Assembly: GCA_022823235.1 (NCBI GenBank)
Contig: JAJDXO010000026.1
Coordinates: forward strand, 66,807 to 130,806
Source of the DNA: Rhodospirillales bacterium
GTDB lineage: Bacteria; Pseudomonadota; Alphaproteobacteria; Rhodospirillales; UBA2165
DNA: 64,000 bases
Reading direction: 5' to 3'
Within the stretch, counting starts at the first letter, position 1; the number at the start of each line of letters is the position of its first letter. Positions 40,831-62,267 of the stretch are shown piece by piece. Under the pieces are notes generated by a model. The model did not search any database and was not told where the DNA came from. It saw nothing but the letters and a program-made list of their open reading frames with translations. The translations under genes were made by a program, and so were the position numbers.

Positions 40831-42549
40831 ATGAAAATGGACCGGATCGTTCCCAGATACACGGCTATCGGCGTCCTCTTCGGATGCCTGTTTCCGATTA
40901 CCGCCTGGATTTTGGATTTGAGTTTGGGCGGGATGACGCCGAGCGCCCAGGCGATCATCGACATCCATCGGGCCTCGCCCGTCCACTTCATCGTCGATTT
41001 GGCCCCGATCGTCCTTGGCGCCGCGTTTTTCTTCTTGGCCGCCAAGCAGCGGCATGTCGTGGCCGCGAGCGAGGCGCTCCGAGGCGATGCCGTCGAGCGC
41101 GCCGAAGCCCTCAACCAAAGCGAAGCCCGAATCAAGGATTTCACCAACATTCCCAACCAGCGCTTCTGGGAAACCGATGAGGACCACGTTTTCACCTATG
41201 TGTCGGGCGGTATCGGACGAACATTCATGAACACCATCGACGACGCCGTCGGGAAGAAGCGCTGGGAGCTTCCGGGGGTCACCGCATCGGAGGCGGCTTG
41301 GAAGGCGCACAAGGCCGATATAGCCGCCCGGCGCCCGATCAATGATTTCCGTTGTACCCAGACGGACACGGCCGGGAACATCACGCACCTGAACATCAAC
41401 GGCCATCCCTTTTATGACGAGAATGGCAGTTTCCGCGGCTATCGGGGCACCACGACAAACATTACCCAACAGGTTGAAGCCGCGAGAGCGGTCGAACAGT
41501 CCGAGGAGAAATACCGGCACTTGTTCGAATTCGCCGAAGACTCGATCTTTATCGTCGATACGGACACATTCAGATTTCTGGATGTCAACCGCGCGGCCGC
41601 ACGGCGCCTTGGGTACACCACCGGGGAACTCATCGGCAAACTTGTGGTGGACATCAACGCGGAGGACTTCAGGCCGGAAGAAACCGCCCGCCGGCTTGAA
41701 CGCATCCGGGAGGAAGGCAGCCTGACCTTCGAAACCGTGCACGTTCGCAAGGACGGGTCCAAGCTGCCGGTCGAAATCAGTTCGCGGTTCGTCAGCTACG
41801 GCAACCGGGAAGTTCTGGAGAGTATCGTCCGCGATATCACCGAACGAAAGGAAATCGAGCGTCTCAAGAACGAGTTCATTTCGACGGTCAGTCATGAGCT
41901 CCGCACGCCGTTGACTTCAATCATCGGCTCCCTCGGACTGATGCGCGGAAACGGCTTGGGCGAAGATCCCGGGCAGGTTCGGCAACTCATCGAGGTCGCC
42001 CACGGCAATTCGGAACGGCTGGTCCGGCTGATCAACGACATACTCGACATCGAAAAAATCGAATCCGGCAGCATGGAATTCGAGATGCAGCCGGTGGACC
42101 TCAATGCATTGGTGGAACAGGCCATCGCCGACAACGAGGGCTACGCGGACCGGTTCGGCGTCATTCTGGTCAAGGAGCGCGGTGTGCCCGATGCATCGAT
42201 CACCGGGGATTGGCATCGGTTACTGCAGGTTATGGCGAACCTGATATCCAATGCGTCGAAATTTTCGCCCGCGGGCAGCCGCGTCGACGTCAAGCTAACG
42301 CCGAACGGCAGAACGGTCCGGGTCGCCGTCAAGGACAATGGGCCCGGGGTTCCGTTGGACTTTCGGGACACCATTTTCGACAAGTTTACCCAGTCGGACA
42401 TGTCGGATAGCCGCGAGAAAGGCGGCACCGGTCTGGGCCTCTCGATTTCAAAGGCGATCGTCGAGGTCCACGGCGGCCGGATCGGGTTTCGGAACAACGC
42501 GGAAGGCGGCGCCACGTTCTATTTCGATCTCCCTCGTGAAGCGGCCTAG
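40831..42549 (+). CDS. membrane-associated PAS-domain sensor histidine kinase
   Basis: 572 aa. N-terminal hydrophobic segments, two PAS-like regions, H-box STVSHELRTPL, N/G boxes NLISNASKFSP, DNGPGVP and GGTGLGLSI. No response regulator adjacent. Confidence 0.85.
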   Translation: MKMDRIVPRYTAIGVLFGCLFPITAWILDLSLGGMTPSAQAIIDIHRASPVHFIVDLAPIVLGAAFFFLAAKQRHVVAASEALRGDAVERAEALNQSEARIKDFTNIPNQRFWETDEDHVFTYVSGGIGRTFMNTIDDAVGKKRWELPGVTASEAAWKAHKADIAARRPINDFRCTQTDTAGNITHLNINGHPFYDENGSFRGYRGTTTNITQQVEAARAVEQSEEKYRHLFEFAEDSIFIVDTDTFRFLDVNRAAARRLGYTTGELIGKLVVDINAEDFRPEETARRLERIREEGSLTFETVHVRKDGSKLPVEISSRFVSYGNREVLESIVRDITERKEIERLKNEFISTVSHELRTPLTSIIGSLGLMRGNGLGEDPGQVRQLIEVAHGNSERLVRLINDILDIEKIESGSMEFEMQPVDLNALVEQAIADNEGYADRFGVILVKERGVPDASITGDWHRLLQVMANLISNASKFSPAGSRVDVKLTPNGRTVRVAVKDNGPGVPLDFRDTIFDKFTQSDMSDSREKGGTGLGLSISKAIVEVHGGRIGFRNNAEGGATFYFDLPREAA

Positions 42550-43603: not shown

Positions 43604-44374
43604 TCAGCCCTTCACCTTGAAACCGACGGACCCGAGGCCCTGCACCGTATTGCGGACCGAAACGCCCTTCTCCAGGGCGACCGCCTCGGTGACTCCGCCC
43701 GCCATGACCACCCAGCCGGCTTCGAGTATTTCACCCGCTTCGGCGGCCATCCGGGACGCCGCGGCGAGCGACCGCCCGGGATGTCCGAGTATCGCGGCGG
43801 ACGAGCCGATGGTCGCCGGACGGCCGTTCACTTCCATGACCACGCCGAGGTTGTCCAGATCCATATCCGGCGGGCACCAGGGCCCGATCACGTAGCCGGA
43901 CGACGATGCGTTGTCGGCCACCACGTCCTGCAGATTGAACTTGAACGCCCGGTAGCGGCTATCGATGATCTCGAGCGCCGGGGCGACCGCCTCCACCGCC
44001 GCCATCGCCTCCATGGGCGTGGTCGGGCCGGCCAATGGCGCGCCCAGCAGGTAGGCGATTTCCGGCTCGACCCGCGGGTGCACGTAATCCTTGAGGTTGA
44101 TGACCGCGCCGTCCTCGACCAACATGCCGTCGGTCAAGCGGCCCCAGATCATGTCGGACAGGCCCATCTGGACCATCTTGGCCCGGCTGGTGAAACCCAT
44201 CTTCATGCCCGAGCGCTCTTCGCCACGCTCCAGGCGCCGGTCGATACTCGCCGCCTGGATTCTGTAGGCCTGTTTGAGCGTCATCCTGCTCTTCTTGGAG
44301 AGCTGTGGGATTGCCGTCGCCTTCACCGCCGCATCGTCGACCGTCTTGGCGAGTTTTTGAATATCGACTGCCAT
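43604..44374 (-). CDS. 2-oxopent-4-enoate hydratase / 4-oxalocrotonate decarboxylase family protein (XylI/DmpH-like member of the pair)
   Basis: ATG 44374 with GGGGAGAA upstream. KMGFTS..PRVEPEIAYLL..ALEIIDSR motifs of the MhpD/XylJ/XylI family. Confidence 0.7.
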   Translation of the reverse strand: MAVDIQKLAKTVDDAAVKATAIPQLSKKSRMTLKQAYRIQAASIDRRLERGEERSGMKMGFTSRAKMVQMGLSDMIWGRLTDGMLVEDGAVINLKDYVHPRVEPEIAYLLGAPLAGPTTPMEAMAAVEAVAPALEIIDSRYRAFKFNLQDVVADNASSSGYVIGPWCPPDMDLDNLGVVMEVNGRPATIGSSAAILGHPGRSLAAASRMAAEAGEILEAGWVVMAGGVTEAVALEKGVSVRNTVQGLGSVGFKVKG

Positions 44375-44387
44375 CTTCGTTCTCCCC

Positions 44388-45176
44388 TTACGCGCCGAAC
44401 ACGGCCCGGACCGAACCCAGCCCGTTGATCCGCGCCTCGTAAACCTCACCCTTGGCCGCCGGCACCATCGGCCCCAAAGCGCCGGACATGACGATGTCGC
44501 CGGCCGACAACGGCCGGCCCCGCGCGGTCATGACCTCCGCCAGCCAGCGCACCGCATTGACGGGATGGCCGAGGCAGGCGGCCCCGGCGCCGACCGAAAC
44601 CGGCTCGCCGCGGTTTTCCACCACCATGCCGCACATGCGGCCGTCGAAGTCGTCCAGCGCAACCTTGTCGTTGCCCAGGATGAAGAGCCCCGACGAGGCA
44701 TTGTCGGCCACCGTGTCGACGATGGTGATGTCGAAATTCGCGATCCGGCTGTCGACGACCTCGATCGCCGGGGCGGCATAGGCGACGGCGCGGATCACGT
44801 CCGCGGTGGTCGGCTTATCCAGATGCAGGTCCCTGTCCAGGATGTAGGCCACCTCCGCCTCGACCCGCGGCTGAGAAACCCGGCTCGCCGGGATTTCCTC
44901 GCCGTCCGGCACCGCCATGTCGTCGAACAGCATGCCGTAGTCCGGCTGATCGACCCCCAATTGGGTTTGAACGGCCTTGGCGGTCAGGCCGATCTTGCGG
45001 CCCACCATGCGGGCGCCTTCGCGCAATCGCCACAGGGTCACGTTCTCCTGAACCGCATAGGCGCCGTCGATGTCGCCGCGGTCGAGAAGATCCCGGACCG
45101 GCTTGTCCGCCTTCCCGCTCTTGTAGGCGTTGATAATCCTCTCGGACGCCTGATGAATGGCTGAAGCTGAGGTCAT
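44388..45176 (-). CDS. 2-oxopent-4-enoate hydratase family protein (MhpD/XylJ-like member of the pair)
   Basis: ATG 45176 with AGGGAGGA upstream. GRKIGLTAKAVQ..PRVEAEVAYIL..AIEVVDSRI motifs. Confidence 0.75.
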   Translation of the reverse strand: MTSASAIHQASERIINAYKSGKADKPVRDLLDRGDIDGAYAVQENVTLWRLREGARMVGRKIGLTAKAVQTQLGVDQPDYGMLFDDMAVPDGEEIPASRVSQPRVEAEVAYILDRDLHLDKPTTADVIRAVAYAAPAIEVVDSRIANFDITIVDTVADNASSGLFILGNDKVALDDFDGRMCGMVVENRGEPVSVGAGAACLGHPVNAVRWLAEVMTARGRPLSAGDIVMSGALGPMVPAAKGEVYEARINGLGSVRAVFGA

Positions 45177-45320
45177 CGAGACGGTTCCTCCCTGGGAATT
45201 TCCGGTGATTGCCGGCGATTGCGTGCCGGCGAGCCTATCCGACGGCGGATGCCTAGACAATCGCCCGGGATCGGGCAACCCGGGCCCAACCGGTGTCCGA
45301 CGCTCGGACGAGAAATTGTC

Positions 45321-46763
45321 CTAGACGGGCGCCGGCGTGGCGCCCTTGGTGCCCGTGCCGAACGCCGCCTCCGGTCCGCCGAATTTGGCGGTGAGTTCGT
45401 TTTGGTCGTCCTTGGCGCGGCGGTCGACGGCCTCGGGGTCGACCAGGTCGCGCAGCGCCGCATGCATCGCATCGAGATGCGCCTTGGCGCCCGGATCGCC
45501 CGCCATATTGGTCGTTTCCTCGGGGTCGTCTTCCAGATCGAACAGCTCGGGCTCGAAGCCCACATAGTAAATGTACTTCCACCGGCCGCGGCGGATCATG
45601 AACGCGCCGGAGGGCGAACCCGCGGCGTGATATTCGGAAAATGCGATCCGCCCGGGCTCGTCGTTTTCGCCGGCCAGTTGGAACCATGAACGCCCCGGCA
45701 GATCCCGGGCGTCGTCGGGAACCTCCACGCCGACGCCGTCCAGGATGGTCTGGTAGCTGTCCACAAGGCTGACGGGCGTCGTACAGATCCGGCCTTCGGG
45801 AACGTCCGGCCCGGCGACCATCAGCGGAATACCGGCCGCCTCCTCGTACATGTTGGATTTGCCCCACAGGCCCCGGGCGCCGACATTGTCGCCGTGGTCC
45901 GAGGTGTAGACGATGCGGGTGTCTTCGGCGAGGCCGGATGATTTGAGGGTGTCCAGCACCCGCCCGATTTGCGCATCGACGTAACTGCAGAGGCCGAAAT
46001 AAGCGGCCTGGGCAACCTTGCGGTCGTCCGGGGTCAGCGCATCGTCGGTGCCGTGAAACCGCGCCATGGTATCCGTCCACGGGTGGCGCTCGTATCCGTC
46101 CTCGGGCCGCAGTTTCATGGGCGGCAGGTCGCCGATCGGATACATGTCGTAATATTCCCGCGGCACCACCAGCGGAAAATGCGGCGCCACAAAGCCGAGA
46201 TACAGCACCCAGGGCCGGTCCGCCGGCCGGGCGGCCACGGCCTCCAGCCATTCGCAGGCCGTGTCGGCGATGGTCCGGTCATAGATATTGTACTTGGACT
46301 CTCCGGGGCCGAGGGTTTCGCCCAGCATTTTCTGTCCGCGCGGGTTGCCCAGCGGCAACGGATCCCGCACCGACCCCCATACCTGGCCGACCCCGCCCAT
46401 GATGTGCATGGGGTGGCGCTGCGCGCTGAACCCGGTGGGGTCGGTCTCGTTGCGGTAATGGAGCTTGCCGACGGATTCGACGGCGAACCCGAGGTCGATC
46501 AGATGGTGTCCCCATCCCCGGACCCGGCCGTCATAGGCCAGGGCGTTGTCCCAATAGCCGGTGTCATGCACGTAGCGGCCGGTGGCCCACGCGGCCCGCG
46601 CGGGAATGCAGATCGGCGAATTGGTATAGGCGGCGGTAAAGCGGGTCCCCGCCACGGCCAGCGCGTCCAGGTTCGGGGTCTTCACGTGCGAATGGCCGGC
46701 GCACCCCAGCATCCTGGGGTTGTGCTCGTCGGACATGATGAACAGCAGGTTCTTTGGATTCAT
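45321..46763 (-). CDS. Cys-type sulfatase (S1 family), no signal peptide
   Basis: 480 aa. MNPKNLLFIMSDEHN and formylglycine motif SPICIPARAAWATGR (C-x-P-x-R). ATG 46763 directly abuts the tctA stop (46764). Confidence 0.85.
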   Translation of the reverse strand: MNPKNLLFIMSDEHNPRMLGCAGHSHVKTPNLDALAVAGTRFTAAYTNSPICIPARAAWATGRYVHDTGYWDNALAYDGRVRGWGHHLIDLGFAVESVGKLHYRNETDPTGFSAQRHPMHIMGGVGQVWGSVRDPLPLGNPRGQKMLGETLGPGESKYNIYDRTIADTACEWLEAVAARPADRPWVLYLGFVAPHFPLVVPREYYDMYPIGDLPPMKLRPEDGYERHPWTDTMARFHGTDDALTPDDRKVAQAAYFGLCSYVDAQIGRVLDTLKSSGLAEDTRIVYTSDHGDNVGARGLWGKSNMYEEAAGIPLMVAGPDVPEGRICTTPVSLVDSYQTILDGVGVEVPDDARDLPGRSWFQLAGENDEPGRIAFSEYHAAGSPSGAFMIRRGRWKYIYYVGFEPELFDLEDDPEETTNMAGDPGAKAHLDAMHAALRDLVDPEAVDRRAKDDQNELTAKFGGPEAAFGTGTKGATPAPV

Positions 46764-48338
46764 CTAACCAAGGGCCTTTTTATTGCGGGCGAAGAACACC
46801 ACGACGATGACGGCGATCGCAATAAATGCGATTGAGATCGGACTGTCGAAGAGGAACCACGGGTTGCCGCCGGTCGCCGAAAAGGCCTGCCGCATCGCTT
46901 CCTCCAGGCGGTTCGCGAGAATAAAGGCGATCACGAACGGAAGCACCGAGATATCCAGTTTTCGCATGAGATACCCGATGAAGCCGAAAAACAGCGTGAA
47001 GTAGATGGCGAACATATCGGTGTTTTGCACATATATGGCTGTCGGCGTCAGCAGCAGAACCACCGCCAGCAGACGCTGTTTCGGCACCTTCACCATCACG
47101 CCGGTCGCCCGCATGAAGATACCGCCCAAGGTCCAATTCAGGATATTGGCGCAGATCATTGTCGTGAACAGGCCGAAGACAATGACCATTTCGGGATTTA
47201 TCTGATCTGGAATCACCCGGAAGACGGTCGGGCCGGGGTTGAAACCGCCGATGGATTCGGCGGCCAGGATTATGAAAACCGCCGAGACGTTGCCCGGGAT
47301 TCCCAGTGACAGGACCGGTATCAAATTGGCGCCCGCGACCGAGGAATTGGCCGCCTCGGTCGCCGCGACCCCCTCGGGCACACCCTCTCCAAAGGATTTG
47401 TCGCCCTTGTACATTTTCTTGCCGCTGGCATAGCCGAGGGTCGCCGCCAGGACCGAGCCAATACCCGGGAGCGCGCCGATCGCGGTGCCGATCACCGCCG
47501 ACAAGCCGACAAACGGCAGAATGCGGCGAATGTCGGCCAACCGCAGTTTGTTGTCCCCTTTTTCCTCGATCATGGTGATTTCCGAGCGCTCGCGCATTTC
47601 GCGCCACATGTCTTCCATGGATTTGAAGACTTCGCCCAGGATAAGAACGCCGACGACCGCGCTGACGAGCGGAAATCCATTCCCCAGTTCCTCGCTCCCC
47701 ATGGAAAGCCTGGGATATCCGTCTTCGCCGGTCCCGATATAGGCGAAAAACAGGCCAAGGAGCGCGCCGAGAATCCCCTTCCAAACGGACCTTCCGACGA
47801 CGGCGGATATGAAGGCGAGCGATAGGATGATCAGCGCCGCTTTCTCGGGAAAGTCGAGGAACCGCTCGACCATGATTGCCAGGAACGGCGCCGAGGTGAT
47901 CAGAACAATGTCGGAAAACGTATCGCCGGTAACCGACGAAAAGTGCGCCACCCGCAGCGCCTTTCCCGATTGGCCGTTCCGCGTCATGGGATAGCCGTCG
48001 AACGTCGTCAGCACGGAATCCGGCGTGCCCGGCGTGTTGAACAGGATCGCCGGCACCGCGCCGCCGATTGTCGAACCCTTCATGATGCCGACCAAAAAGC
48101 CGAGAACCGGCAACAGGGCATCGGGCGTGAACCCGAATACCGAAATCAGGATGGGCAGGGATACGGCCATGGCAAACGGGCCGCCGAGACCCGGGGTCGC
48201 GCCGACCACGATGCCGCCGACGAACCCGCTGAAGACCATTACCAAGGTGATCGAGATCGGCAGCCCGAATATGGAGAATGCGGGCTCGGCGGTGAATACC
48301 GCCAATACGCCCAGCCAGACGTGATCCAGCACACCCAC
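46764..48338 (-). CDS. tctA: tripartite tricarboxylate transporter (TTT) large permease
   Basis: GTG 48338 overlaps the tctB TAG by 1 nt. Polytopic TctA-like sequence. The upstream 122 codons of ORF 46764..48704 overlap tctB out of frame. Confidence 0.85.
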   Translation of the reverse strand: MGVLDHVWLGVLAVFTAEPAFSIFGLPISITLVMVFSGFVGGIVVGATPGLGGPFAMAVSLPILISVFGFTPDALLPVLGFLVGIMKGSTIGGAVPAILFNTPGTPDSVLTTFDGYPMTRNGQSGKALRVAHFSSVTGDTFSDIVLITSAPFLAIMVERFLDFPEKAALIILSLAFISAVVGRSVWKGILGALLGLFFAYIGTGEDGYPRLSMGSEELGNGFPLVSAVVGVLILGEVFKSMEDMWREMRERSEITMIEEKGDNKLRLADIRRILPFVGLSAVIGTAIGALPGIGSVLAATLGYASGKKMYKGDKSFGEGVPEGVAATEAANSSVAGANLIPVLSLGIPGNVSAVFIILAAESIGGFNPGPTVFRVIPDQINPEMVIVFGLFTTMICANILNWTLGGIFMRATGVMVKVPKQRLLAVVLLLTPTAIYVQNTDMFAIYFTLFFGFIGYLMRKLDISVLPFVIAFILANRLEEAMRQAFSATGGNPWFLFDSPISIAFIAIAVIVVVFFARNKKALG

Positions 48339-48907
48339 TATTGATCGCCGTTCGGCGGCAGCAACAGGTTGTCGAACGGTACGTCGTAGATGAATCCCAG
48401 TACCACGACGGCGCCGATGGCGACCCCTGCCGCCGCCATTGAGAAACGGTTCTCGACCACCCGAATGGCGCCGAACACCAGCACGAATCCGCCGGCGGCA
48501 AATCCCAGATACTTGTATGGAACGGTATCCCGAAGCTGGCGGTAGGTTCCGATCTCGCCGCCCAGTCCATTGATGGACTCGACGACGACAGGACCGGTGA
48601 AAACCATCAGCACCAGGCCAAGCACAAGCACCACGGCCATTCGCAGGAGGAACGCGATGCTTTGGCGATCGGGGGTATCGTCGAACGGGTCCGGGCGAAA
48701 CCACGAGGTGGCGCCAAGCGCAAGCGCGGCAATGAGGACGCCGACGGCGGCGCCGGTCGGGGCGAGGGCGTCACCGATCATTACCTCACGCCGAAACCGC
48801 TCGATCAGGCCGGTTTCGATGTCGTTCGGAATCCAGACCGCGAGCGTCAGAACCGCCGCCAGAACGAAAAGCGCGGCGAGCGCGAGTGTCCAGCGGTCCT
48901 GTTGCAT
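48338..48907 (-). CDS. tctB: TTT small membrane subunit
   Basis: 189 aa, 4 hydrophobic segments, positioned between tctC and tctA. Confidence 0.75.
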   Translation of the reverse strand: MQQDRWTLALAALFVLAAVLTLAVWIPNDIETGLIERFRREVMIGDALAPTGAAVGVLIAALALGATSWFRPDPFDDTPDRQSIAFLLRMAVVLVLGLVLMVFTGPVVVESINGLGGEIGTYRQLRDTVPYKYLGFAAGGFVLVFGAIRVVENRFSMAAAGVAIGAVVVLGFIYDVPFDNLLLPPNGDQ

Positions 48908-48955
48908 GACCTCCCCCTAAGCGAAAGGGCGGAGCACTGCCCCGCCCCGATCAGC

Positions 48956-49918
48956 CTAGTTGGTTACGCTCATAAGTGTCTTGGATTCTTTCAGTCCGTT
49001 TTTGATGAAATCGTCCAAGGCCTTGCCGGAAATCAGATCCGGGCCTGTGTATCGGGCAGTGACGAACTTGTTCACTTCGCTGTTCTTGTCCGAAATAACC
49101 TCGGCAAAGGCGGCGGCGAGTGTGTTCCGCGCGTCCGCGGACATTCCCTTCGGTCCCACGACGATGAACTTGGCGCCGATGTCATAGGGAATGCCGAGCT
49201 CGATCAGGGTCGGCGCGTTCGGCGAATACGGAATCCGCTTTCCAACTCCCGAAACGAGATTGATCATATCCCCTGATTTGACGGCCTTGGCCTGGATTCC
49301 GGCACCGTATCCGATATCAATGTCCCCGGCGTTCAACGCGTTCATGACGGCGCGTCCGCCGCGAAGAATGACGGTATTGAATTTCACGCCGTATTTCTGT
49401 TCGAGCAGGTAGTTCACATCGGCATGCTTTTGGCTCATGCCGCCGAACTTCACCGTGCCGGCCCGAGCCGCTTTGAGGAAATCGTCCCAAGTCTTCCAGC
49501 CTTTGGAGGCCTTTACCACGAGGCCCATCTGGGAGCCGGTTGTGGTGGTAATGTAGGTGAAGTCGTCCGCCGTGTAGCCCGGGTTTTTCGACGCGAGCAT
49601 GTTGTAGCCAAAGGACTCGGTCACCGCCATGCCGATGGCGGTTCCGTCATTCGGAAGACTCTTGAGCTTGCGCGCCATCAAGGCGCCGCCGCGGCCGGCA
49701 ACGTTCGAGGGGATAACCTTCCACCCCTTGCGTTTTTGCAGTTCGGACGCAATCAGGCGTGCTTGCGTATCGGTGCCGCCGCCGGCGGCAAATCCGATCA
49801 TCAGGCTGATCGGTCCCTTGGGTTTCCATTCCGCGGCCGCGGAACCGGCCATCAGGCCGACAGCCGCCACGCCCAGCGCGGCGGAAACGAGAACTTTCTT
49901 GGCAGTTTTGAGGGTCAT
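48956..49918 (-). CDS. tctC: TTT periplasmic substrate-binding protein (Bug family)
   Basis: 320 aa. Signal peptide VLVSAALGVAAVGLMAGSAAA. Bug motif FAAGGGTDTQARL. Confidence 0.85.
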   Translation of the reverse strand: MTLKTAKKVLVSAALGVAAVGLMAGSAAAEWKPKGPISLMIGFAAGGGTDTQARLIASELQKRKGWKVIPSNVAGRGGALMARKLKSLPNDGTAIGMAVTESFGYNMLASKNPGYTADDFTYITTTTGSQMGLVVKASKGWKTWDDFLKAARAGTVKFGGMSQKHADVNYLLEQKYGVKFNTVILRGGRAVMNALNAGDIDIGYGAGIQAKAVKSGDMINLVSGVGKRIPYSPNAPTLIELGIPYDIGAKFIVVGPKGMSADARNTLAAAFAEVISDKNSEVNKFVTARYTGPDLISGKALDDFIKNGLKESKTLMSVTN

Positions 49919-49967
49919 CTGACGTCCTCCCAGTTGAAAACAAGTTACGTGATCGTTCCAGTCGAAT

Positions 49968-49985
49968 TAGTTGTTATAACAACTA
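49968..49985. promoter_or_regulatory. perfect 18-bp palindrome TAGTTGTTATAACAACTA (operator copy 1, upstream of tctC)
   Basis: Reverse complement equals itself. Lies 50 nt upstream of the tctC ATG (49918). Confidence 0.6.
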
Positions 49986-50017
49986 TATTGATTTTCGGTT
50001 CGTGATGCAAGCGCTTC

Positions 50018-51367
50018 TCACCCCGGCGGCTCATACGGATCGAGGGTACCGGGCGGGATGGGCGGATGCGCCTTCAGGCTTTCCCGGAAGTCGCGAACCA
50101 TCTGCGAAATCGGCCCCATGACCCAGGAATTCAGGATCGCCACATTGGTCTCTTCCTTGGGGTCCTGGATGAGGTTGAACAGGTACGGGGCTTCGAGTTT
50201 GCCCTTCCCCTCGTTGACTTCCGGCTCCCAGTAGAAATGCAGCTTCCAGTCCCGCCACTTGGCCGCCCGCATGTCTTCCTTGATGAAGAAGACGAAGCCC
50301 TCGCGCGCGGAATGTTCCGCGCCTTCGAACAGAAACGCGGTCTGGTCGATTCCGTCGACGGGCCGGTCCGCCGGTATGCCGTCGCCGGCGCCCGCGAGCT
50401 TGGCGAGGGTGACGTAAAAGTCGGAGATATGGAGCATCTCGTCGCTGACCGCGCCGGTCGGCACCTTGCCCGGCCAGCGCAAAATACACGGCACCCGGAG
50501 GCTGCCCTCCATCGCCGTGTGGTAAGTGCCGCGCCAGTAGCCCGCCGTCCCGCGCCAGGGGTCGCGAAACTCCGGGCCATTGTCGGACGCGAAGATCACC
50601 AGCGTATCGTCGGCGATCCCCAACCGGCCGATCTCGTCCAGAATCTGGCCGACCCGGTGATCCAGTTCCACGAGGCTGTCGGCCATCTCCCCGTGACCGG
50701 TGACGCCCTTGAAATCCGGATGGGGCAGGTTGGGAAAGTGCATCTGGGTGACCGGCGCATACAGAAAGAACGGCTTTTCGTCCGCCACCGCCTTGCCCAT
50801 GAAGTCAATGGAGCGCCGGACGATCTCGCCGTCGATCAGCCGGCGGCTCTCCATGTCGAAGACCTGAAGGTCGCGGGACTCCTCGCCCGCCTTGCCTTCC
50901 ATCAGGTGCGGAACCTGAACCACCCGGTCGTCGAACCCCTGCGCCGTCGTGAAGTAGGCTTCGTTGAGGGTGCGCGGCAGGCCGTACCAATCATCGAATC
51001 CGCGGGCATTCGGCAGACGATGCGGGGCGTCCCCCAGGTGCCACTTGCCGTAATGGGCCGTCGCATAGCCTGCCCCGGAGATCAGCTCGGACAGCAGCAC
51101 CTCCCATGTGGTGAGGCCATGGGGCACGCCCGCCGGCATGGATTGATAGGCGCCGGTACGGATCGCGTGACGGCCGGTCATCAGGGCGGTCCGGGTCGGT
51201 ACGCAATCGCTTTCCACGTTGAAGTTGGTGAGCCTGAGGCCCTCTTCGGCGAAGGCGTCGATTCGCGGCGTCGGCGCGCCGCGCAAGACCCCGCCGCCGT
51301 AGCAGCCAAGCTCGCCCCAACCAAGATTGTCGGCGAGAATGAGCACGATGTTCGGCCGCCCGCTCAT
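50018..51367 (-). CDS. Cys-type arylsulfatase-like sulfatase (S1 family), no signal peptide
   Basis: ATG 51367 overlaps the MarR stop (ATGA). RPNIVLILADNLGWGELGCYG and SDCVPTRTALMTGR motifs. Confidence 0.85.
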   Translation of the reverse strand: MSGRPNIVLILADNLGWGELGCYGGGVLRGAPTPRIDAFAEEGLRLTNFNVESDCVPTRTALMTGRHAIRTGAYQSMPAGVPHGLTTWEVLLSELISGAGYATAHYGKWHLGDAPHRLPNARGFDDWYGLPRTLNEAYFTTAQGFDDRVVQVPHLMEGKAGEESRDLQVFDMESRRLIDGEIVRRSIDFMGKAVADEKPFFLYAPVTQMHFPNLPHPDFKGVTGHGEMADSLVELDHRVGQILDEIGRLGIADDTLVIFASDNGPEFRDPWRGTAGYWRGTYHTAMEGSLRVPCILRWPGKVPTGAVSDEMLHISDFYVTLAKLAGAGDGIPADRPVDGIDQTAFLFEGAEHSAREGFVFFIKEDMRAAKWRDWKLHFYWEPEVNEGKGKLEAPYLFNLIQDPKEETNVAILNSWVMGPISQMVRDFRESLKAHPPIPPGTLDPYEPPG

Positions 51368-51858
51368 CCGCCGCCGGTCTCGCCGGTTTCGTCCAAAAGC
51401 GTTATCGCCTGGCCTTCTATCTTGCGGAGCAGGCGGTCGAACTCTCTCCGCTCCGCCGCCGTCAGCACACTGATCAGCCGGTCCTGCCTGTCCTGGGACG
51501 TGGCGGACATGGCGTCGTAGAGCGATCGGCCTTCGGGGGTGAGTTCGACAACCATCCGCCGCCGATCCGCCGCATCCGGCGTCCGGCGGACCAGTCTCCG
51601 GTCGATAAGGCGCTGGACCGCCCTTGAGACATTGCTCTTGTCCATCACCGTCTCTTCGGAAATCCGGCTGGCGCTCATCGGCCCGCCGCGTCCCAGGGGC
51701 GCCAATGTCCGCCACTCCACCGACGTCATCCCGAATTTGTTCCCGTACGTGCGGGTCGCCCAGAGGGTCAAGCGGTTGGACAAAAGCGAGAAACGGTAAG
51801 CCAAGATATTCCGCAGCTCGAATTTCTCCGGCCCCGCCGGTGCCGCCAAGTCGTCCAT
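51364..51858 (-). CDS. MarR family transcriptional regulator
   Basis: ATG 51858 with GGGAGG 10 nt upstream. Winged-helix SASRISEETVMDKSNVSRAVQRLIDRRLV. Translationally coupled to the downstream sulfatase. Confidence 0.8.
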   Translation of the reverse strand: MDDLAAPAGPEKFELRNILAYRFSLLSNRLTLWATRTYGNKFGMTSVEWRTLAPLGRGGPMSASRISEETVMDKSNVSRAVQRLIDRRLVRRTPDAADRRRMVVELTPEGRSLYDAMSATSQDRQDRLISVLTAAERREFDRLLRKIEGQAITLLDETGETGGG

Positions 51859-51895
51859 GCGAACGTCGCCTCCCACCGGAAATCATCTCAAATTT

Positions 51896-51913
51896 TAGTT
51901 GCTATAACAACTA
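51896..51913. promoter_or_regulatory. operator copy 2, TAGTTGCTATAACAACTA, in the marR / comA-like divergent region
   Basis: 17/18 match to copy 1. 38 nt from the MarR ATG and 52 nt from the ComA-like ATG. Confidence 0.6.
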
Positions 51914-51964
51914 AGATTTGAAAACGTTCGGACCGGAAAGCACAGGCCGGGAAGAGGCACGACG

Positions 51965-52759
51965 ATGGCTGACACGGCATTTGAATTCATTGACTTCCCC
52001 ATGCGCCCGTCCAAGCCGCGGCGCGACGGGCTGACCATGATGATCGATTGGGGCCTGCCCCTCGCACTCCAGTCCGATGTGGTGGCGGGAGCAAACCGGT
52101 ACATCGATATGGCCAAGATCGCGGGTTCGATAGCAGGCGTGATGTCCCGCGGGCTGCTGGAGGAAAAAATCGCCGCCTACAGGTCAGCCGGGATCAGCAC
52201 CTCGCAAGGCGGGCTGTTTACGGAAATGGCCTATATGCAGGGAAAAATCGAACCCTTCTTCGAGCGCATTGCCGAACTGGGTTTCGATGCGGTCGAAATC
52301 TCGGACAATCTGCTGAACTGGAGCCTCACCGACAAGGAACGAACGATTCGGCTGGCGATCGAGCAATTCGGACTGAAAGTCCTTGGCGAGGTGGGCCGCA
52401 AGGATGCGGCCATGGACGACGACGCCTTGCTCGAGGATCTTCGGATCACCGTGGATGCCGGCGTCACGTCGGTATTCGTGGAGGCATACGAACTATTCGC
52501 GGGCGATTCCATTCGCGACGACCTGATCGCGAAGATCGCCGGGCAGCACCCGTCGGACACCATCATCTACGAACTGCCGGTGGTCGTATTGCCCGGGGTC
52601 ACGCGCGAGTTCAAGCACAAGGTCACCGTCTGGATGGTGGATGCGCTCGGCTCCAACGTGAACCTGGCCAACGTGGAGTGGGACGAGATCTGGATGACCG
52701 AAATCATCCGGTGCCGCGGCGCCGACAACCTCGAAGAACCGGATAATACGCAGGCCTAG
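51965..52759 (+). CDS. comA: phosphosulfolactate synthase (ComA, coenzyme-M pathway type) family protein
   Basis: 264 aa. Blocks KPRRDGLTMMIDWGL, GFDAVEISDN, LGEVGRK and GSNVNLANVEWDEI match, from memory, the conserved blocks of archaeal (2R)-phospho-3-sulfolactate synthase. Confidence 0.7.
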   Translation: MADTAFEFIDFPMRPSKPRRDGLTMMIDWGLPLALQSDVVAGANRYIDMAKIAGSIAGVMSRGLLEEKIAAYRSAGISTSQGGLFTEMAYMQGKIEPFFERIAELGFDAVEISDNLLNWSLTDKERTIRLAIEQFGLKVLGEVGRKDAAMDDDALLEDLRITVDAGVTSVFVEAYELFAGDSIRDDLIAKIAGQHPSDTIIYELPVVVLPGVTREFKHKVTVWMVDALGSNVNLANVEWDEIWMTEIIRCRGADNLEEPDNTQA

Positions 52760-52827
52760 GGTCCGGCCTCGATTGAGCCGCCATAGGAGTGTTGGGCGAT
52801 GGGGACCGCGCCGGCTAAGGCGTCAGC

Positions 52828-52930
52828 TGAGGCCTAAATTGATTGCGTCATGGCCGGGCCCAGACCCGGCCATCCACGTGTACCGTACACCGCCAGACGT
52901 GGATCACCGGGTCCAGGCCCGGTGATGACG
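52828..52930 (+). repeat. REP-like element R2 copy followed by a second hairpin module
   Basis: ATGGCCGGG-N6-CCCGGCCAT, then CCACGT..ACGTGG, then ATCACCGGG-N6-CCCGGTGAT. Matches the classic alphaproteobacterial intergenic hairpin family. Confidence 0.75.
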
Positions 52931-52937
52931 ACTCTTG

Positions 52938-52980
52938 TTCCCCCGCCCCCATCACGGGAGCGGGACAGGGGGAGGGGGAA
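52938..52980. repeat. C-rich/G-rich inverted repeat TTCCCCCGCCCCC..GGGGGAGGGGGAA
   Basis: 13-nt arms with one mismatch, followed by AGGGGGCGAGGG. Located just after the convergent sulfatase stop (52996). Confidence 0.6.
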
Positions 52981-52995
52981 AGGGGGCGAGGGCCC

Positions 52996-54531
52996 CTAGG
53001 CCTCGTGTTCGGGCAGGTCCGCCATCATCGGGCCCGGCCGGGCCCGGATCATGTCCGTGAGCTCCTTTTGCAGCGCGGCGTACCCGGGATCGCCGAAGAG
53101 ATTGTCCATCTCCAGGGGGTCGTTCCCCAGATCGTACATCTCCCCCGCCCCCGAGATCAGCTCGAGCGTCAACTTGGCATCCCGGGTGCGCACGGTTCTG
53201 AGATTGAGCTCCACGCCGGTGCGGCTCGGCTGTTGGTTCCACTCGGAATAGGAAACGTCGCGGCTTTGCCCGCCGCCCTCCGCCAGCGGCCGGACCGACG
53301 TGCTTTGATCCATGCTGCCGCACTCGACCCCCGCCCAGTCATAAAAGCTGGCGGCGAGATCCACCGTCGAGACCGGCGCATCGACAATCGCGCCGCCGGG
53401 GACATGGGGGCCCTTGACGATGAACCCGAGTTTGAGCAGGGCGTCATACGGCGTCGGTCCCTTCAGATAGAGCCCGTGATCTCCCAGCAGGTCGCCGTGG
53501 TCCATGGTGAAGACGACGATGGTGTTGCCGGCGAGGCCCGTATCATCGAGGGTCTTCATGATCCGGCCGACGCCGTCGTCGATGAAGGCGATCTCGCCGT
53601 AATAATTGGCGGTCATTTGCCTCAACTGCCTGTCGGTCTGGGGCTGGATGCGCGAATACTCCTTGCGCAGCGTCTGCTCCCGCTGCCGTTTGGCTCGCGG
53701 CTCGTTCTCCAGGGACGCCCGATGCCACCAGGGACGCCGGTCCAGGTCCCTTTCGTGGGTCCGGGAAATATCCACTTCGTCTTCGTGGTGGAGACGGCTC
53801 CAAGGCTCGGGACAGTCGAACGGATGGTGAGGATCGGGATAGGATGTCCAGAGGCAGAATGGCTCGTCGGCGCCTTTTCGGCTTTCGAGAAACGACTTCG
53901 TGCGCTCGGTTACCCAATGGGTCGAGTGCCACTCCGCCGGCAGGCCCGAGAACCAGGTCTGGGCCGCCTCCTGTTCGGGACCCAAATCCTCGGCCCAGCG
54001 CCGCCACGCCTCCCCCTCCCCGCCGTTGCCCCAGAACCAGCGCTCAAAATGATGGCCGCGGGGCGGTTTCTCACAGGGAAGCAGGTCGTGCCAATGGCCG
54101 AGGATCATCAGCTCCACATGGTCGAACCCCATATAAGGCCCGGACCAGTCATCCGGAAATTCCGCCGACCGGGCCCGGGATTCCGGGGCGCCGAAGGGCG
54201 TGTTGCCGGGGTTCTCGCCGAAATGCCCCTTGCCGATGAAGGCGCTCCGGTATCCCGCATTCGCCAATGTCCGCGCCCAGCCGGTTTCGCCGACGGCGGG
54301 GTCCAGGCTGACATGATTGTCGTAGACCCCATGGGTCAGCGGCAGCAGTCCCGTCAGGATGGAGGCGCGCGCCGGCTGACAAACCAGGTTCGGGGTAATG
54401 GCATTCGAGAATCGGGTTCCCGACGCGGCCAGGGCATCGAGGTGCGGGGTCTTGATCTTCCGGCCTTCGAAGCCGAAGCAGTCCCAGCGATGCTGGTCGG
54501 AGGTGATGAGCAGAATATTGGGTCGGGTCAT
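52996..54531 (-). CDS. Cys-type sulfatase (S1 family), no signal peptide
   Basis: ATG 54531. MTRPNILLITSDQHRWD and NLVCQPARASILTG motifs. Paralogous to 59398..61044. Confidence 0.85.
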   Translation of the reverse strand: MTRPNILLITSDQHRWDCFGFEGRKIKTPHLDALAASGTRFSNAITPNLVCQPARASILTGLLPLTHGVYDNHVSLDPAVGETGWARTLANAGYRSAFIGKGHFGENPGNTPFGAPESRARSAEFPDDWSGPYMGFDHVELMILGHWHDLLPCEKPPRGHHFERWFWGNGGEGEAWRRWAEDLGPEQEAAQTWFSGLPAEWHSTHWVTERTKSFLESRKGADEPFCLWTSYPDPHHPFDCPEPWSRLHHEDEVDISRTHERDLDRRPWWHRASLENEPRAKRQREQTLRKEYSRIQPQTDRQLRQMTANYYGEIAFIDDGVGRIMKTLDDTGLAGNTIVVFTMDHGDLLGDHGLYLKGPTPYDALLKLGFIVKGPHVPGGAIVDAPVSTVDLAASFYDWAGVECGSMDQSTSVRPLAEGGGQSRDVSYSEWNQQPSRTGVELNLRTVRTRDAKLTLELISGAGEMYDLGNDPLEMDNLFGDPGYAALQKELTDMIRARPGPMMADLPEHEA

Positions 54532-54543
54532 GGGCGGACAAGA

Positions 54544-54561
54544 TAGTTGTTTTAACAACCA
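54544..54561. promoter_or_regulatory. operator copy 3, TAGTTGTTTTAACAACCA, in the sulfatase / lldD-like divergent region
   Basis: 16/18 match to copy 1. 13 nt upstream of the sulfatase ATG 54531. Confidence 0.5.
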
Positions 54562-54660
54562 AAATAAAAGCCCTAATTTCGGCACCCCCCCGGCCCGGAT
54601 TGCCAATTCCGGCCAAAAACGGTAGGGATAAAAATACAGCACCGTTACGGGGAGTCAGCC

Positions 54661-55803
54661 GTGGACCCGCTGCGGAAATACCCGGCCATAGAAGATCTGC
54701 ACCGGCGCGCGCGAAAGCGCATACCGAGATTCGCCTTCGACTATCTGGAAGGCGGCGCGGGCGATGAATCCGGTATTGACCGCAACCGGGAGGCGCTGCT
54801 GGAGATCCGGCTGATCGCCGACTACCTGGAGGAGCGCAGCCCGCCCGACCTCGGCGTCGAGGTGTTCGGCCGCAAGGTCGATCTCCCATTCGGCATTGCG
54901 CCGGTGGGATTGAGCGGCTTGATCTGGCCCCGGGCCGCCGAGTATCTGGCGAGCGCGGCGAAGGACGCCAACGCGGTCTATTGCCTTTCGACCGTCGCCA
55001 GTTCGGGCATCGAGCGCATCGGCGGTCTGATGCAGGAAGGCAGCTGGTTTCAGCTCTACCCGATTCGCGAAGTCGAAAAGGAAGACGATCTCCTGAAACG
55101 GGCCTGGGATGCCGGATTCCAAGTGCTCACGCCGACGATCGATATTCCGGCGGCGGCCCGCCGCCTTCGGGATTTCCGCAACGGCCTGACGGTGCCGCCC
55201 GAGATGACCATCGGCAATATCGTCTCGATCTTCGCCCACCCCACATGGGCCCTCGCAACCCTGGCGGCCGGCCCGCCGAAATTCGAGAGCCTGATGCCGT
55301 ATTTCCCAAAGGGGGTCACCTACAAATCCGTCGGCCAAATGATCGAAACCCTCGCCGAGGGGCAGATCGACTGGCGGCGCATCGAACGCTACCGGAAGAT
55401 TTGGCCGGGCGCCCTAGCGGTGAAAGGCGTTCTCAGCGCCGGGGATGCCCGCCGCGCCCGGGAGGCCGGCTGTGACGGGTTGCTCGTGTCCAACCATGGC
55501 GGCCGGCAACTGGATGGACTGGTGTCTCCCATCGACGTCCTGCCGGTCATACGTGAGACCGTCGGACCCGACATGACCCTGGTGGTCGACAGCGGCCTGC
55601 GGTCGGGCACGGACATCGTCCGGGCCTATGCCAAGGGGGCCGACTTCACGCTCCTCGGCCGGGCATTCTTCTATGGGGTCGGCGCGCTGGGGCGGCCGGG
55701 AGCAGCACACGCCATCGAAGTACTGAAGGCCGAGGTCTTTGCCGCCCTCCATCAATTGGGCTGCCCGAACATGGCGGCGACACCGCGCTACCTGGCGAAT
55801 TAA
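54661..55803 (+). CDS. FMN-dependent alpha-hydroxy acid dehydrogenase/oxidase (LldD / glycolate oxidase family)
   Basis: GTG 54661 with GGGGAG 6 nt upstream. RIPRFAFDYLEGGAGDE and SNHGGRQLD motifs. Confidence 0.85.
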   Translation: MDPLRKYPAIEDLHRRARKRIPRFAFDYLEGGAGDESGIDRNREALLEIRLIADYLEERSPPDLGVEVFGRKVDLPFGIAPVGLSGLIWPRAAEYLASAAKDANAVYCLSTVASSGIERIGGLMQEGSWFQLYPIREVEKEDDLLKRAWDAGFQVLTPTIDIPAAARRLRDFRNGLTVPPEMTIGNIVSIFAHPTWALATLAAGPPKFESLMPYFPKGVTYKSVGQMIETLAEGQIDWRRIERYRKIWPGALAVKGVLSAGDARRAREAGCDGLLVSNHGGRQLDGLVSPIDVLPVIRETVGPDMTLVVDSGLRSGTDIVRAYAKGADFTLLGRAFFYGVGALGRPGAAHAIEVLKAEVFAALHQLGCPNMAATPRYLAN

Positions 55804-59397: not shown

Positions 59398-61044
59398 ATG
59401 CTCGGCGGGTCTTCCATGGAACAACCGTCCCCCGATATGCCCGAGCGCCGTCCGAATTATCTTTTCATCATCACCGACCAGCACCGCGCCGATCATATGG
59501 GCGCTTACGGAAACAGCATCGTCAGGACGCCCAACATGGACGCCTTGGCGGCGCGCGGCCTGACATTCGACAGGTTCTATGTCGCCTCGCCCACGTGCAT
59601 GCCCAACCGGGCGGCCCTCGCGACCGGGCGCATGCCGTCGGCGACCGGCGTCACGACCAACGGCTACCCCCTGTCCCTCGACTCGGTCACCCTGATGGAC
59701 CTGCTGGCCGCCGCCGGCTACCGCACGGCCCTGATGGGCAAATCCCATCTTCAGAACTTCACCGACCGGACGGTCCGCGAGCGGACTTTCGCGGTTCGGG
59801 CCGATGGGGCGGCGCCGCCGGAGGACCTCTCCCAGGCGCTTCGCCGCCGCATCGACGGGCCGGAGTACCGGAACGAGCTGCGCAGCACCTGGGACGCCGA
59901 CCCGAACCGGGGCGTCAATCTCCCCTACTACGGATTTCAGGAAGCCAAGATCGCGCTGTTCCATGCCGACCGGGTGGGCGGCGACTACACCGCCTGGCTG
60001 ATGGAAAATCACCCGGACCACGCATCCCTCCGCGGTCCGGAAAACGCACTGGACAACGCCGGCGAGATTCGCGCGCCCCAGGCCTGGCGTACGCGAATTC
60101 CGGAAGAGCTCTATCCGACGACCTGGATCACCGACCTCACCATCGATTGCCTGGAGCGCTGCGCCGCCGATCCGGAGACGCCGTTCTATATTCAGTGCGG
60201 CTATACGGATCCCCATCACCCGTTCACGCCGCCCGGCAAATATTGGGACATGTACGACCCGGCCGACATTCCCGCGCCGGCGTCGCTGGGCGCGGAACAC
60301 ACGGACCCGCCGCCGTTCATCGGCATGCTGCAAAAGGCGCTGGCCGACGGCTCGGCCGACCGGAGCTACGTCCACCCCTACGCGGTGGACGAGGAGGAGG
60401 CGCGCCAAACCATCGCCCTTACCTACGGCATGATCACCATGGTCGATGACGGCATCGGCCGAATCCTCGCCAAGCTCGAAGAGCTGGGCCTCGCCGGCAA
60501 CACCATCGTGGTCTACACCTCCGACCATGGCGACGTGATGGGCGATCACGGGGTCATGTTGAAGCACGGCCTGCACACCGAGGGCGTGATCCGCATGCCG
60601 TTCATCTGGGCCGATCCCACGGGCGCCAAGGGCGAGCGAAGCGATGTCCTCGCGGGCGCCGTGGACTACATGCCGAGTGTTCTGGCGCGCGCCGGATTGC
60701 AGCCGTTCAGCGGCGTGCAGGGGGTCGATATCGTCGGCGCCGCCCGATCCGGGGAAACGCCGGCGCGCGCCGGTCTCATCGTCGAGGCGGACGAACTGCC
60801 GGAGAACGTCGACGTCGAGGATTTCTTCAAGGTTCGCACCTTCGTCGACGGGCGGTGGCGGCTGACCCTCTGGGTCGAAGAGCAATTCTGGGAAATGTAC
60901 GACCGGGACGCCGATCCCGACGAAATCCGCAATCTTTGGAACGACTCCGCCCATGCGGCGGACCGGGCGCGGCTGACCGAAGCGATGCTTCAAGAACAGT
61001 ACCGGTACAGCGACCTCATGCCCCGGCCGGTCTACATGGGCTAG
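59398..61044 (+). CDS. Cys-type sulfatase (S1 family), no signal peptide
   Basis: 548 aa. PNYLFIITDQHRADHMG and SPTCMPNRAALATGR motifs. ATG 59398 has GGGGGG 7 nt upstream; ATG 59416 and 59437 are alternatives. Confidence 0.85.
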   Translation: MLGGSSMEQPSPDMPERRPNYLFIITDQHRADHMGAYGNSIVRTPNMDALAARGLTFDRFYVASPTCMPNRAALATGRMPSATGVTTNGYPLSLDSVTLMDLLAAAGYRTALMGKSHLQNFTDRTVRERTFAVRADGAAPPEDLSQALRRRIDGPEYRNELRSTWDADPNRGVNLPYYGFQEAKIALFHADRVGGDYTAWLMENHPDHASLRGPENALDNAGEIRAPQAWRTRIPEELYPTTWITDLTIDCLERCAADPETPFYIQCGYTDPHHPFTPPGKYWDMYDPADIPAPASLGAEHTDPPPFIGMLQKALADGSADRSYVHPYAVDEEEARQTIALTYGMITMVDDGIGRILAKLEELGLAGNTIVVYTSDHGDVMGDHGVMLKHGLHTEGVIRMPFIWADPTGAKGERSDVLAGAVDYMPSVLARAGLQPFSGVQGVDIVGAARSGETPARAGLIVEADELPENVDVEDFFKVRTFVDGRWRLTLWVEEQFWEMYDRDADPDEIRNLWNDSAHAADRARLTEAMLQEQYRYSDLMPRPVYMG

Positions 61045-61092
61045 CCCGTTTCATGGCGGGCGGCGCAAAACGAGACAGGGACGGAACGCCTC

Positions 61093-62076
61093 ATGACCAC
61101 CATCGACATCCATACCCATAATTTCGGCCACGGCTGGCTGGACATGATCCGGAAGCACGGCGCGCCGGCGTACGAGATCAGGGACTGCGAAGACGGTCGG
61201 GAATATCTCGTCGAGTACGGCACGCCCGCCTGCGCGCTCGAGGCCGAAGCGTTTGATTATGCCAAGCGCATGGAGATGATGGACAAACACGGCATTGATA
61301 TCTCGGTGGTCTCCGTCACCTCGCCGAACGTGCATTTCGGGGATGAAGCGGTCAGCGTCGAAACCGCGCGCCTCGCCAACGACGAGATGGCCGCCGGTCA
61401 AACGGCCTATCCGGACCGCATCCGGTGGTTCGCCTCATTGCCCTGGGAATACCCCGATGCGGCCATCGCCGAACTGGAGCGGTGCATCGGCAAGGGCGCG
61501 GTCGGGGTCATGTGCGTCGCCCATATCGGAGACCGGCACCTCATCGACCCGCTCTTCGAGCCGGTGTGGAAGGCATTGGACGACATGGCTTTCCCGGTCC
61601 TGGTTCATCCCACGGCGCCCCTCGGCGCCAAGGACGTCGACTTCGGTCACGAACGGATTCTGATGCCGTCCGTGGGCTTCATGTACGACACCACCATCGC
61701 CATCGCGCGCATGGCTATCGACGGGTTCTTCGAACGCTTCTCCGACGTGAAAATCATCGCCAGCCACGGCGGCGGCTACATTCCGTTCGTCAACGGCCGG
61801 GTCGATATGTTCTTCGGCGTCGAGACGCTGGCCAGGTTCGATATTCCGACGCTGCCCAGCGACTACTTCAGCCGGATCTATTACGACGCCATCGTCTACG
61901 ATCAGGCCGCGCTGCAACTGGTCATCGACGTCGCGGGTCCGGAGAAGGTGCTGTTCGGCAGCGATCTTCCGATGCCCGCGGATATGCCCAGGCTGTTCGA
62001 TCTCATCGACGGGCGGCCGGCGGACGAAGCCCGCGCCATCCGCGGCGCCAACGCGGAGCGGGTGTTCGGGCTGTAG
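61093..62076 (+). CDS. amidohydrolase_2 family protein (ACMSD / LigW / gamma-resorcylate decarboxylase-like)
   Basis: 327 aa. MTTIDIHTHNF metal-binding HxH. VLVHP and ASHGGG motifs typical of non-oxidative aromatic acid decarboxylases. Confidence 0.75.
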   Translation: MTTIDIHTHNFGHGWLDMIRKHGAPAYEIRDCEDGREYLVEYGTPACALEAEAFDYAKRMEMMDKHGIDISVVSVTSPNVHFGDEAVSVETARLANDEMAAGQTAYPDRIRWFASLPWEYPDAAIAELERCIGKGAVGVMCVAHIGDRHLIDPLFEPVWKALDDMAFPVLVHPTAPLGAKDVDFGHERILMPSVGFMYDTTIAIARMAIDGFFERFSDVKIIASHGGGYIPFVNGRVDMFFGVETLARFDIPTLPSDYFSRIYYDAIVYDQAALQLVIDVAGPEKVLFGSDLPMPADMPRLFDLIDGRPADEARAIRGANAERVFGL

Positions 62077-62250: not shown

Positions 62251-62267
62251 TTCGGCCGGAAACCGCT

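Follow-up and report, generated by a model that had tools for sequence, protein, structure and literature searches.

The question raised by this locus is which protein reads an 18-bp inverted repeat that occurs three times within 4.6 kb of a sulfatase gene island in a Rhodospirillales bacterium (assembly GCA_022823235.1, contig JAJDXO010000026.1, positions 66,807 to 130,806; the whole stretch of 64,000 nucleotides is called the window below). The repeat has the form TAGTTG-N6-CAACTA, and its copies stand ahead of operons with genes for sulfatases (here sulfA, sulfB and sulfC), a tripartite tricarboxylate-type transporter (TTT, tctCBA), a homologue of phosphosulfolactate synthase (comA-like), an LldD-like dehydrogenase (lldD-like) and a regulator of the MarR family. 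In a preliminary description of this DNA, the repeat had been taken for the operator of that MarR protein. The comparison across genomes, the position of the sites, a motif-blind search and a prediction made on a further locus all speak for this assignment, so that the repeat is very probably, as judged from the sequence, the operator of the MarR encoded at 51364–51858.

First of all, the sites exist and are not a product of chance. When TAGTTGN6CAACTA was searched with up to two mismatches, exactly three matches were found in 64 kb, and these are the three copies located in the preliminary description, the third of which carries one mismatch (positions in Table 1); dinucleotide-preserving shuffles gave a mean of 0.19 matches, and none of the 100 shuffles reached three. 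At three mismatches the sole match added in the window is at 48957 and is not palindromic, and the bare core GTTG-N6-CAAC is found at the same three places and no others. Since the G+C content of the window is about 63%, an A+T-rich 18-mer present three times in 4.6 kb is not an effect of composition.

Close relatives of the window were collected by a protein search with MarR, which gave the loci L001–L006 from Rhodospirillales metagenome-assembled genomes, syntenic with the window and with 90–96% identity in MarR; a later metagenome scan with the MarR alignment added one further close relative alone, L020. The palindrome is retained at each equivalent position in all seven of them. L002 is without sulfC and the lldD-like gene and also without site 3, and in L001 and L005, where tctCBA is much diverged (64%, 56% and 80% amino acid identity for tctC, tctB and tctA, respectively), site 1 is retained all the same. 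The intergenic regions of L001–L006 are 93–95% identical overall, and at such identity throughout, footprinting does not single out the palindrome; distant lineages were used instead.

Protein searches and contig look-ups yielded eight further independent lineages, mostly uncultured Rhodospirillales, whose MarR shares 35–67% identity with that of the window. In each of them the same inverted repeat with the GTTG-N6-CAAC core is found ahead of the marR-containing operon, of tctCBA-sulfatase, or of both, at distances of 32–52 nt from the sulfC-marR operon, tctC, or both, and the nearby intergenic DNA has diverged. That is to say, in nine lineages the sites are found together with this MarR clade and these operons while the flanks diverge, and it is on this pattern that the operator reading is founded.

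The lineages differ in gene order. In L015 (MarR 67%) comA is divergent from a marR that overlaps sulfB by ATGA, and TTAGTTGTTATCGCAACCAA stands 21 nt before the ribosome-binding site (22 nt in the window) in intergenic DNA that is diverged apart from this sequence. Site 2 is the sole conserved block when the window is aligned with L015 (67%), L032 (41%) and L025 (38%). In L028/29 (MarR 52%; sulfC-marR followed by a gene of the metallo-β-lactamase (MBL) fold) TGGTTGCGCGGCCAACCA lies 38 nt upstream, with a second site before tctC. L030 (MarR 47%) has the same sulfC-marR-MBL order followed by tctCBA-sulfA, with TGGTTGCCTAGACAACTA 40 nt upstream of sulfC and AGGTTGCCATGACAACTA 32 nt upstream of tctC, and in L031 and L035/36 (MarR 44% and 42%), which have sulfC-marR, AAGTTGCGATG(T/C)CAACTA is found 52 nt upstream. 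In L032–34 (MarR 41%) sulfC and comA are divergent from marR-DUF3604-tctCBA-sulfA, with a site in the comA/marR intergenic region and another before tctC; the same order occurs in L025–27 (MarR 38%), where TAGTTGTTGGTACAACTT lies 38 nt upstream of tctC and a degenerate copy between marR and comA. The order in L037–39 (MarR 38%) is sulfC-marR-DUF3604-tctCBA-sulfA, with TAGTTGTATTTACAATCA 44 nt before sulfC and TAGTTGTATCAACAACTA, which matches the pattern perfectly, 36 nt before tctC. The last lineage, L007 (MarR 35%), belongs to Burkholderiales and has no sulfatase, and two boxes are present in the 135-bp region upstream of its marR. By equivalent position, the sites before tctC are 32–38 nt upstream in L025, L028, L030, L032 and L037, and those before sulfC 38–52 nt upstream in L028, L030, L031, L035 and L037.

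The association can be put into numbers in three ways. With the window consensus as the sole query and up to two mismatches allowed, 10 of 11 matches in seven independent lineages fell upstream of a marR-containing operon or tctC, regions which make up 2.4% of the DNA (binomial P 6e-16), and shuffles predict 1.3 matches in total across the same set. For L037 a site in each of two upstream regions was predicted before inspection; both were found, and they are the only two matches at up to three mismatches in 12.5 kb. Moreover, when all 4-mer inverted repeats with spacers of 2–10 nt were counted blindly in the upstream regions, GTTG-N6-CAAC ranked first, being present in 6 of 9 marR-operon upstream regions and in 6 of 6 tctC upstream regions. 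In the remaining three marR-operon regions the right half-site is altered at one base (CAAG or CAAT), so that all nine lineages with this promoter on the contig have a site there. The 6-nt centre varies freely and the positions flanking the core are biased (T/A, A/G); the consensus is wrGTTG-N6-CAACyw.

The regulator itself is a member of the MarR family by PF12802 (MarR_2, 1.9e-16) and PF01047 (3.4e-10), both above gathering scores, and it has 59 MarR-family matches in PDB, with 2fa5 the best (E 8.2e-28). Its start, ATG 51858, is conserved across the aligned orthologues. The recognition helix of the window protein reads MDKSNVSRAV, and DK(S/G)NVSR is common to the MarRs that carry a site, with DKGHASR as the variant in L007. 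In the loci of paralogues, L018, L008 and L021, no site was found near marR: the L018 paralogue (41% identity) has the helix DADKVTR and adjoins Rieske oxygenase genes, and the L021 MarR (23% identity) has the helix SSGNITA and, at its own promoter, another palindrome, TTACGC...GCGTAA. Loci with a ComA homologue but without this MarR (L022–L024), which serve as a negative control, have no site either. The presence of the site thus appears to follow the recognition helix of MarR. Together with the enrichment and the L037 result, the siteless paralogues with a different helix show the site co-varying with its cognate regulator across genomes, and the palindrome is present in the regulator's own promoter region, where site 2 precedes marR by 37 nt, which implies autoregulation.

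In the proposed mechanism, MarR would bind the sites directly, repress rather than activate, and be released by a ligand. A MarR homodimer would set its two winged-helix recognition helices (DKSNVSR) into the GTTG and CAAC half-sites, which are 10 bp apart centre to centre, that is, one helical turn; the half-sites would then lie on one face of the DNA, a geometry read from the sequence and compatible with a dimer. The operators stand so close to start codons (12–52 nt) that no promoter fits in between, and they would therefore overlap or immediately follow the core promoters. Their occupancy would block four units: marR-sulfB, by autoregulation; the comA-like gene; tctCBA-sulfA; and sulfC, perhaps together with the divergent lldD-like gene. 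Release of the repressor would come about through a small anionic compound, probably either the sulfate ester that is taken up or something derived from it. The window MarR has no cysteine at all, which makes a ligand a likelier inducer than thiol oxidation; the reactive N-terminal cysteine conserved in the OhrR/MgrA type is lacking here, and the cysteines present in L025 and L032 are not conserved.

Several observations weigh against this interpretation. The site between marR and comA in L025 is degenerate, with four mismatches to the window consensus. In L021, a comA homologue (65% identity) is preceded at 48 nt by a good site, TGGTTGTACACACAACAA (6875–6892), and no MarR of this clade is encoded in the 14.7 kb of that locus; presumably the cognate regulator is encoded elsewhere in that genome. 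An E. coli-type promoter scan of 49850–54750 found no promoter, and the placement of the operators with respect to transcription is taken from the distances to start codons. Finally, toward comA, site 2 (51 nt) may have an activator-type position near -35 to -45.

The L021 site would also suit the idea that another transcription factor encoded elsewhere, such as the IclR or AsnC/Lrp protein whose genes lie 12–14 kb upstream (37349–38825), or a global regulator, binds the palindrome and that MarR is merely one of the regulated genes. This is quite improbable, however: in the eight other lineages the sites have no IclR or AsnC gene beside them, and the one gene always beside a site is that of MarR, even in L031 and L035, whose shared genes are just sulfC-marR, and in the sulfatase-free L007; the dependence of site presence on the MarR recognition helix also argues for MarR itself. 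Sites of the GntR, LexA, CtrA and sigma-54 types were considered and set aside, as their spacing and half-sites do not match and no such regulator travels with the sites.

Some MarR-family proteins are activators, and a MarR that binds these sites but acts as an activator or dual regulator at some promoters would be compatible with sites 1 and 2 at 37–51 nt from the starts, which with a leader of 20–30 nt could be centred near -35 to -45, the more so as the scan mapped no promoter. Site 3, however, is separated from the sulfC ATG by just 12 nt, too few for a promoter to fit in between, and an autoregulatory site in a divergent promoter region is the classic layout of a MarR repressor; activation is therefore considered very improbable. 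With repression by MarR as the preferred interpretation, it can be added that -10-like TAnnnT hexamers beginning at the last two bases of the palindrome are seen by eye in about half of the sites, which is too weak a sign to build on, and that terminators in 49850–54750 do not exceed expectation.

There is also the reading in which the palindrome acts as RNA, as a leader hairpin or a terminator after sulfB, or is a dispersed repeat. In its favour, the RNA of site 2 and the adjoining sequence has a folding energy of -14 to -15 kcal/mol (z about -5 to -6), and site 1 comes directly past the sulfB stop, 32 nt away. Site 1, however, forms just a weak hairpin (-5.8 kcal/mol, z -1.05), with no U-tract behind it; the half-sites are conserved across lineages in sequence and not by compensatory changes, with the 6-nt centre free; and the Rfam search of 49500–55000 gave nothing relevant, its one match being of chance level and inside comA. 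As for a dispersed element of the REP or MITE kind, the 64 kb contain three copies, each of them at a promoter, the flanking sequence differs from lineage to lineage, and about 250 kb of related loci contain no copies outside promoters. Both the RNA and the repeat explanation are extremely improbable, and the repeat remains best understood as a protein-binding site for MarR.

The genes around the sites were assigned by Pfam (Table 1), and the preliminary gene calls, namely three sulfatases, TctCBA, MarR and the ComA-like and LldD-like proteins, stood up in full. So did the translational overlap that had been noted between marR and a sulfatase gene: the marR stop occupies 51366–51364 and the sulfB ATG 51367–51365, which together form ATGA at 51364–51367. 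MarR had further been called the only regulator of the island, which is true for 43.6–56.3 kb, others being encoded farther upstream.

Table 1. Predicted operator sites and genes of the sulfatase island and its upstream surroundings, in window coordinates.
Feature	Position	Strand	Description
Operator site 1 (predicted)	49968..49985	.	TAGTTGTTATAACAACTA, perfect palindrome
Operator site 2 (predicted)	51896..51913	.	TAGTTGCTATAACAACTA, divergent marR/comA intergenic region
Operator site 3 (predicted)	54544..54561	.	TAGTTGTTTTAACAACCA
IclR gene	37349-38206		
AsnC/Lrp gene	38169-38825		
PAS histidine kinase	40831-42549		
Two DmpE/DmpH-like hydratase/decarboxylase genes	43604-45278	-	
sulfA	45321-46763	-	sulfatase, 480 aa, CIPAR (Pfam, CxPxR motif)
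tctA	46764 to ~48302	-	Pfam
tctB-like	48338-48907	-	Pfam
tctC	48956-49918	-	Pfam
sulfB	50018..51367	-	Cys-type sulfatase (CVPTR), co-transcribed with marR
marR	51364..51858	-	164 aa from ATG 51858; ORF reaches GTG 51876
comA-like	51965..52759	+	PF02679, phosphosulfolactate synthase family; divergent from marR, shares site 2
sulfC	52996..54531	-	Cys-type sulfatase, 511 aa (CQPAR), directly behind site 3
lldD-like	54661..55803	+	FMN-dependent alpha-hydroxy-acid dehydrogenase (FMN_dh), divergent from sulfC

Downstream of site 1, tctC, tctB-like, tctA and sulfA form an operon (45321..49918, minus strand) in which the transporter genes are followed by the sulfatase. The sites had been placed 13–52 nt from start codons in the preliminary description, and this range is correct to within a nucleotide for tctC (49 nt between site 1 and ATG 49918), marR (37 nt from site 2 to ATG 51858), comA (51 nt from site 2 to ATG 51965) and sulfC (12 nt from site 3 to ATG 54531), but the lldD-like GTG (54661) is 99 nt from site 3 and falls outside it. 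The same division applies to the regulon proposed there: for this organism, tctCBA-sulfatase, marR-sulfatase, the comA-like gene and the third sulfatase are rightly included, and the lldD-like gene is tied to it by the site at 99 nt. As this gene adjoins sulfC solely in the window's own lineage, it is a possible, and the weakest, member of the regulon.

The comparison among lineages allows the regulon to be divided further. Among the sulfatases, sulfC is the one most constantly tied to this MarR clade: its orthologues (67–76% identity) adjoin marR in L016, L028, L030, L031, L033, L035 and L037, and it accompanies MarR in all sulfatase-linked lineages except L015, where the contig of 1.2 kb is too short, and L025, where the sequence of the locus ends earlier. 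In most lineages tctCBA and a sulfA orthologue (63–70%) are also with MarR, and TctA (75–78%) and sulfA orthologues are found behind a site in L025, L030, L032 and L037. On the other hand, sulfB is confined to the window's group and L015, and comA is present in four lineages, the comA/marR arrangement recurring in L015, L025 and L032–34. This distribution points to a predicted core regulon of sulfC, marR, tctCBA and sulfA, to which sulfB, comA and lldD would be lineage-specific additions.

Farther downstream, at 59398–63944, the window encodes a fourth sulfatase (59398–61044, 548 aa), an amidohydrolase (Amidohydro_2) and a second TctA. The palindrome is missing from all three genes, which are therefore probably under other control; as the MarR paralogues with another helix lack it too, the repeat does not belong to such gene types in general. 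All four sulfatases of the window appear to be cytoplasmic and of the Cys type, and would need a formylglycine-generating or anSME-type maturase; a Pfam scan of 50 ORFs selected across the window found no gene for either. The neighbourhood is rich in functions of the aromatic meta-cleavage type, including Glyoxalase-fold dioxygenases, DmpE/DmpH-like proteins, an HpcH aldolase and a CoA ligase. NCBIfam equivalog cut-offs are not reached by MarR, the sulfatases, the ComA-like or the LldD-like protein, and naming a substrate for the sulfatases was abandoned, since NCBIfam and PDB give just distant types, choline sulfatase and phosphonate-monoester hydrolase, below these cut-offs.

The intergenic regions show some further features. 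The 12 nt between site 3 and the sulfC ATG (TCTTGTCCGCCC) contain no Shine-Dalgarno sequence (window 54520–54545), compared with 38–52 nt in other lineages, and so short a gap suggests that the sulfC mRNA may be leaderless or nearly leaderless. On the other side of site 3, the 99 nt before the lldD-like start (54562–54660) are strongly conserved among relatives and hold CCGGCCCGGATTGCCAATTCCGGCC, an inverted repeat rich in G+C, as well as the block GGCCAAAAACGGTAGGG, with no Rfam match there; lldD may have a promoter or regulatory element of its own here. Site 2 is nested in a 34-bp imperfect palindrome, TCAAATnTTAGTTG...CAACTAAnATTTGA (window 51881–51928), with an RNA fold of -15 kcal/mol (z -6). 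The extension is missing in L015, and it may represent two symmetric divergent -10-like elements, TAAAAT and TAAGAT. In L030, a number of long repeats and inverted repeats, such as the motifs GGACTTGTTCC and CCCGGGGTGACAGCGGGG, are present in the 557 bp upstream of tctC (8379–8935), and the operator sits at the extreme end of this region.

Two parts of the island also vary among close relatives. The diverged tct alleles span 9959–13151 in L001 and 9969–13135 in L005, corresponding to 46764–49918 of the window, in genomes that elsewhere share 93–98% identity, and the flanking sulfB and sulfA are 93–98% identical; it looks as if the transporter allele had been swapped by recombination and the operator kept. 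The convergent sulfC/comA gap, 236 bp in the window, contains an amidase-signature gene (475 aa) in L001 (5582–7009) and two transposase-like ORFs in L003 (5005–6717); this part of the island appears to be a hot spot for insertions.

Beyond the operator itself, it is conceivable, though rather doubtful, that this MarR clade and its GTTG-N6-CAAC operator mark a conserved and undescribed pathway of Rhodospirillales from varied environmental metagenomes, in which the TTT system would import a small anionic sulfate ester and the two conserved sulfatases, sulfC and sulfA, would desulfate it in the cytoplasm. The ComA-like phosphosulfolactate-synthase homologue, the LldD-like dehydrogenase, DUF3604 and the MBL-fold hydrolase may be lineage-specific modules on that core, the first two of them hinting at a connection with sulfolactate-type organosulfur metabolism. 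Literature searches, some MarR queries of which were swamped by matches to 'marrow', returned neither a MarR-controlled sulfatase regulon nor a combination of phosphosulfolactate synthase with sulfatase. If such a pathway exists, the operator could be used as a reporter or biosensor for finding the substrate. In any case, a defined and testable regulon becomes available for cytoplasmic sulfatases that recur in uncultured Rhodospirillales; the consensus wrGTTG-N6-CAACyw and the helix DK[S/G]NVSR make it possible to predict the regulon wherever a genome carries this MarR clade, and the split between core and lineage-specific genes narrows the search for substrate and effector.

Compared with known systems, the pair of a MarR repressor and a palindromic operator is a conventional mechanism, and the operator is close to the box of MexR. 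The MexR operator consists of two boxes, each GTTGA-N5-TCAAC, for example TTTTAGTTGACCTTATCAACC (bioRxiv 10.1101/2024.04.02.587325). The system described here resembles that of Pseudomonas aeruginosa (mexR-mexA, boxes PI and PII) in that the autoregulatory site of a MarR-family repressor lies within a region of divergent promoters, the half-site GTTGA...TCAAC is nearly identical, and in L007 two boxes stand side by side as PI and PII do. The differences are that the spacer here is one base shorter (GTTG-N6-CAAC against GTTG-N7-CAAC in MexR), the window has one box per promoter, the proteins are distantly related (PDB 1lnw, E 1.4e-4), and the targets are sulfatases and a TTT transporter, whereas MexR controls an efflux pump. 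With the aromatic-acid repressors of the HpaR, PcaV and HcaR/CouR type, this MarR shares its small cysteine-free form, its place within the catabolic and transport cluster that it would control, and palindromic operators at several promoters of the cluster. The best named NCBIfam model is indeed HpaR (4e-13), far under the cut-off; the window MarR is not an orthologue of these repressors, as its scores are well under the family cut-offs, and its predicted targets are sulfatases. The closest solved structure, PDB 2fa5 (MarR/EmrR family, from structural genomics), covers residues 9–148 and has a similar recognition helix, MDKVAVSRAV; its depositors assign neither function nor operator, so that it is uninformative on DNA specificity or ligand, and it is the MexR box that remains the nearest described counterpart of the operator.

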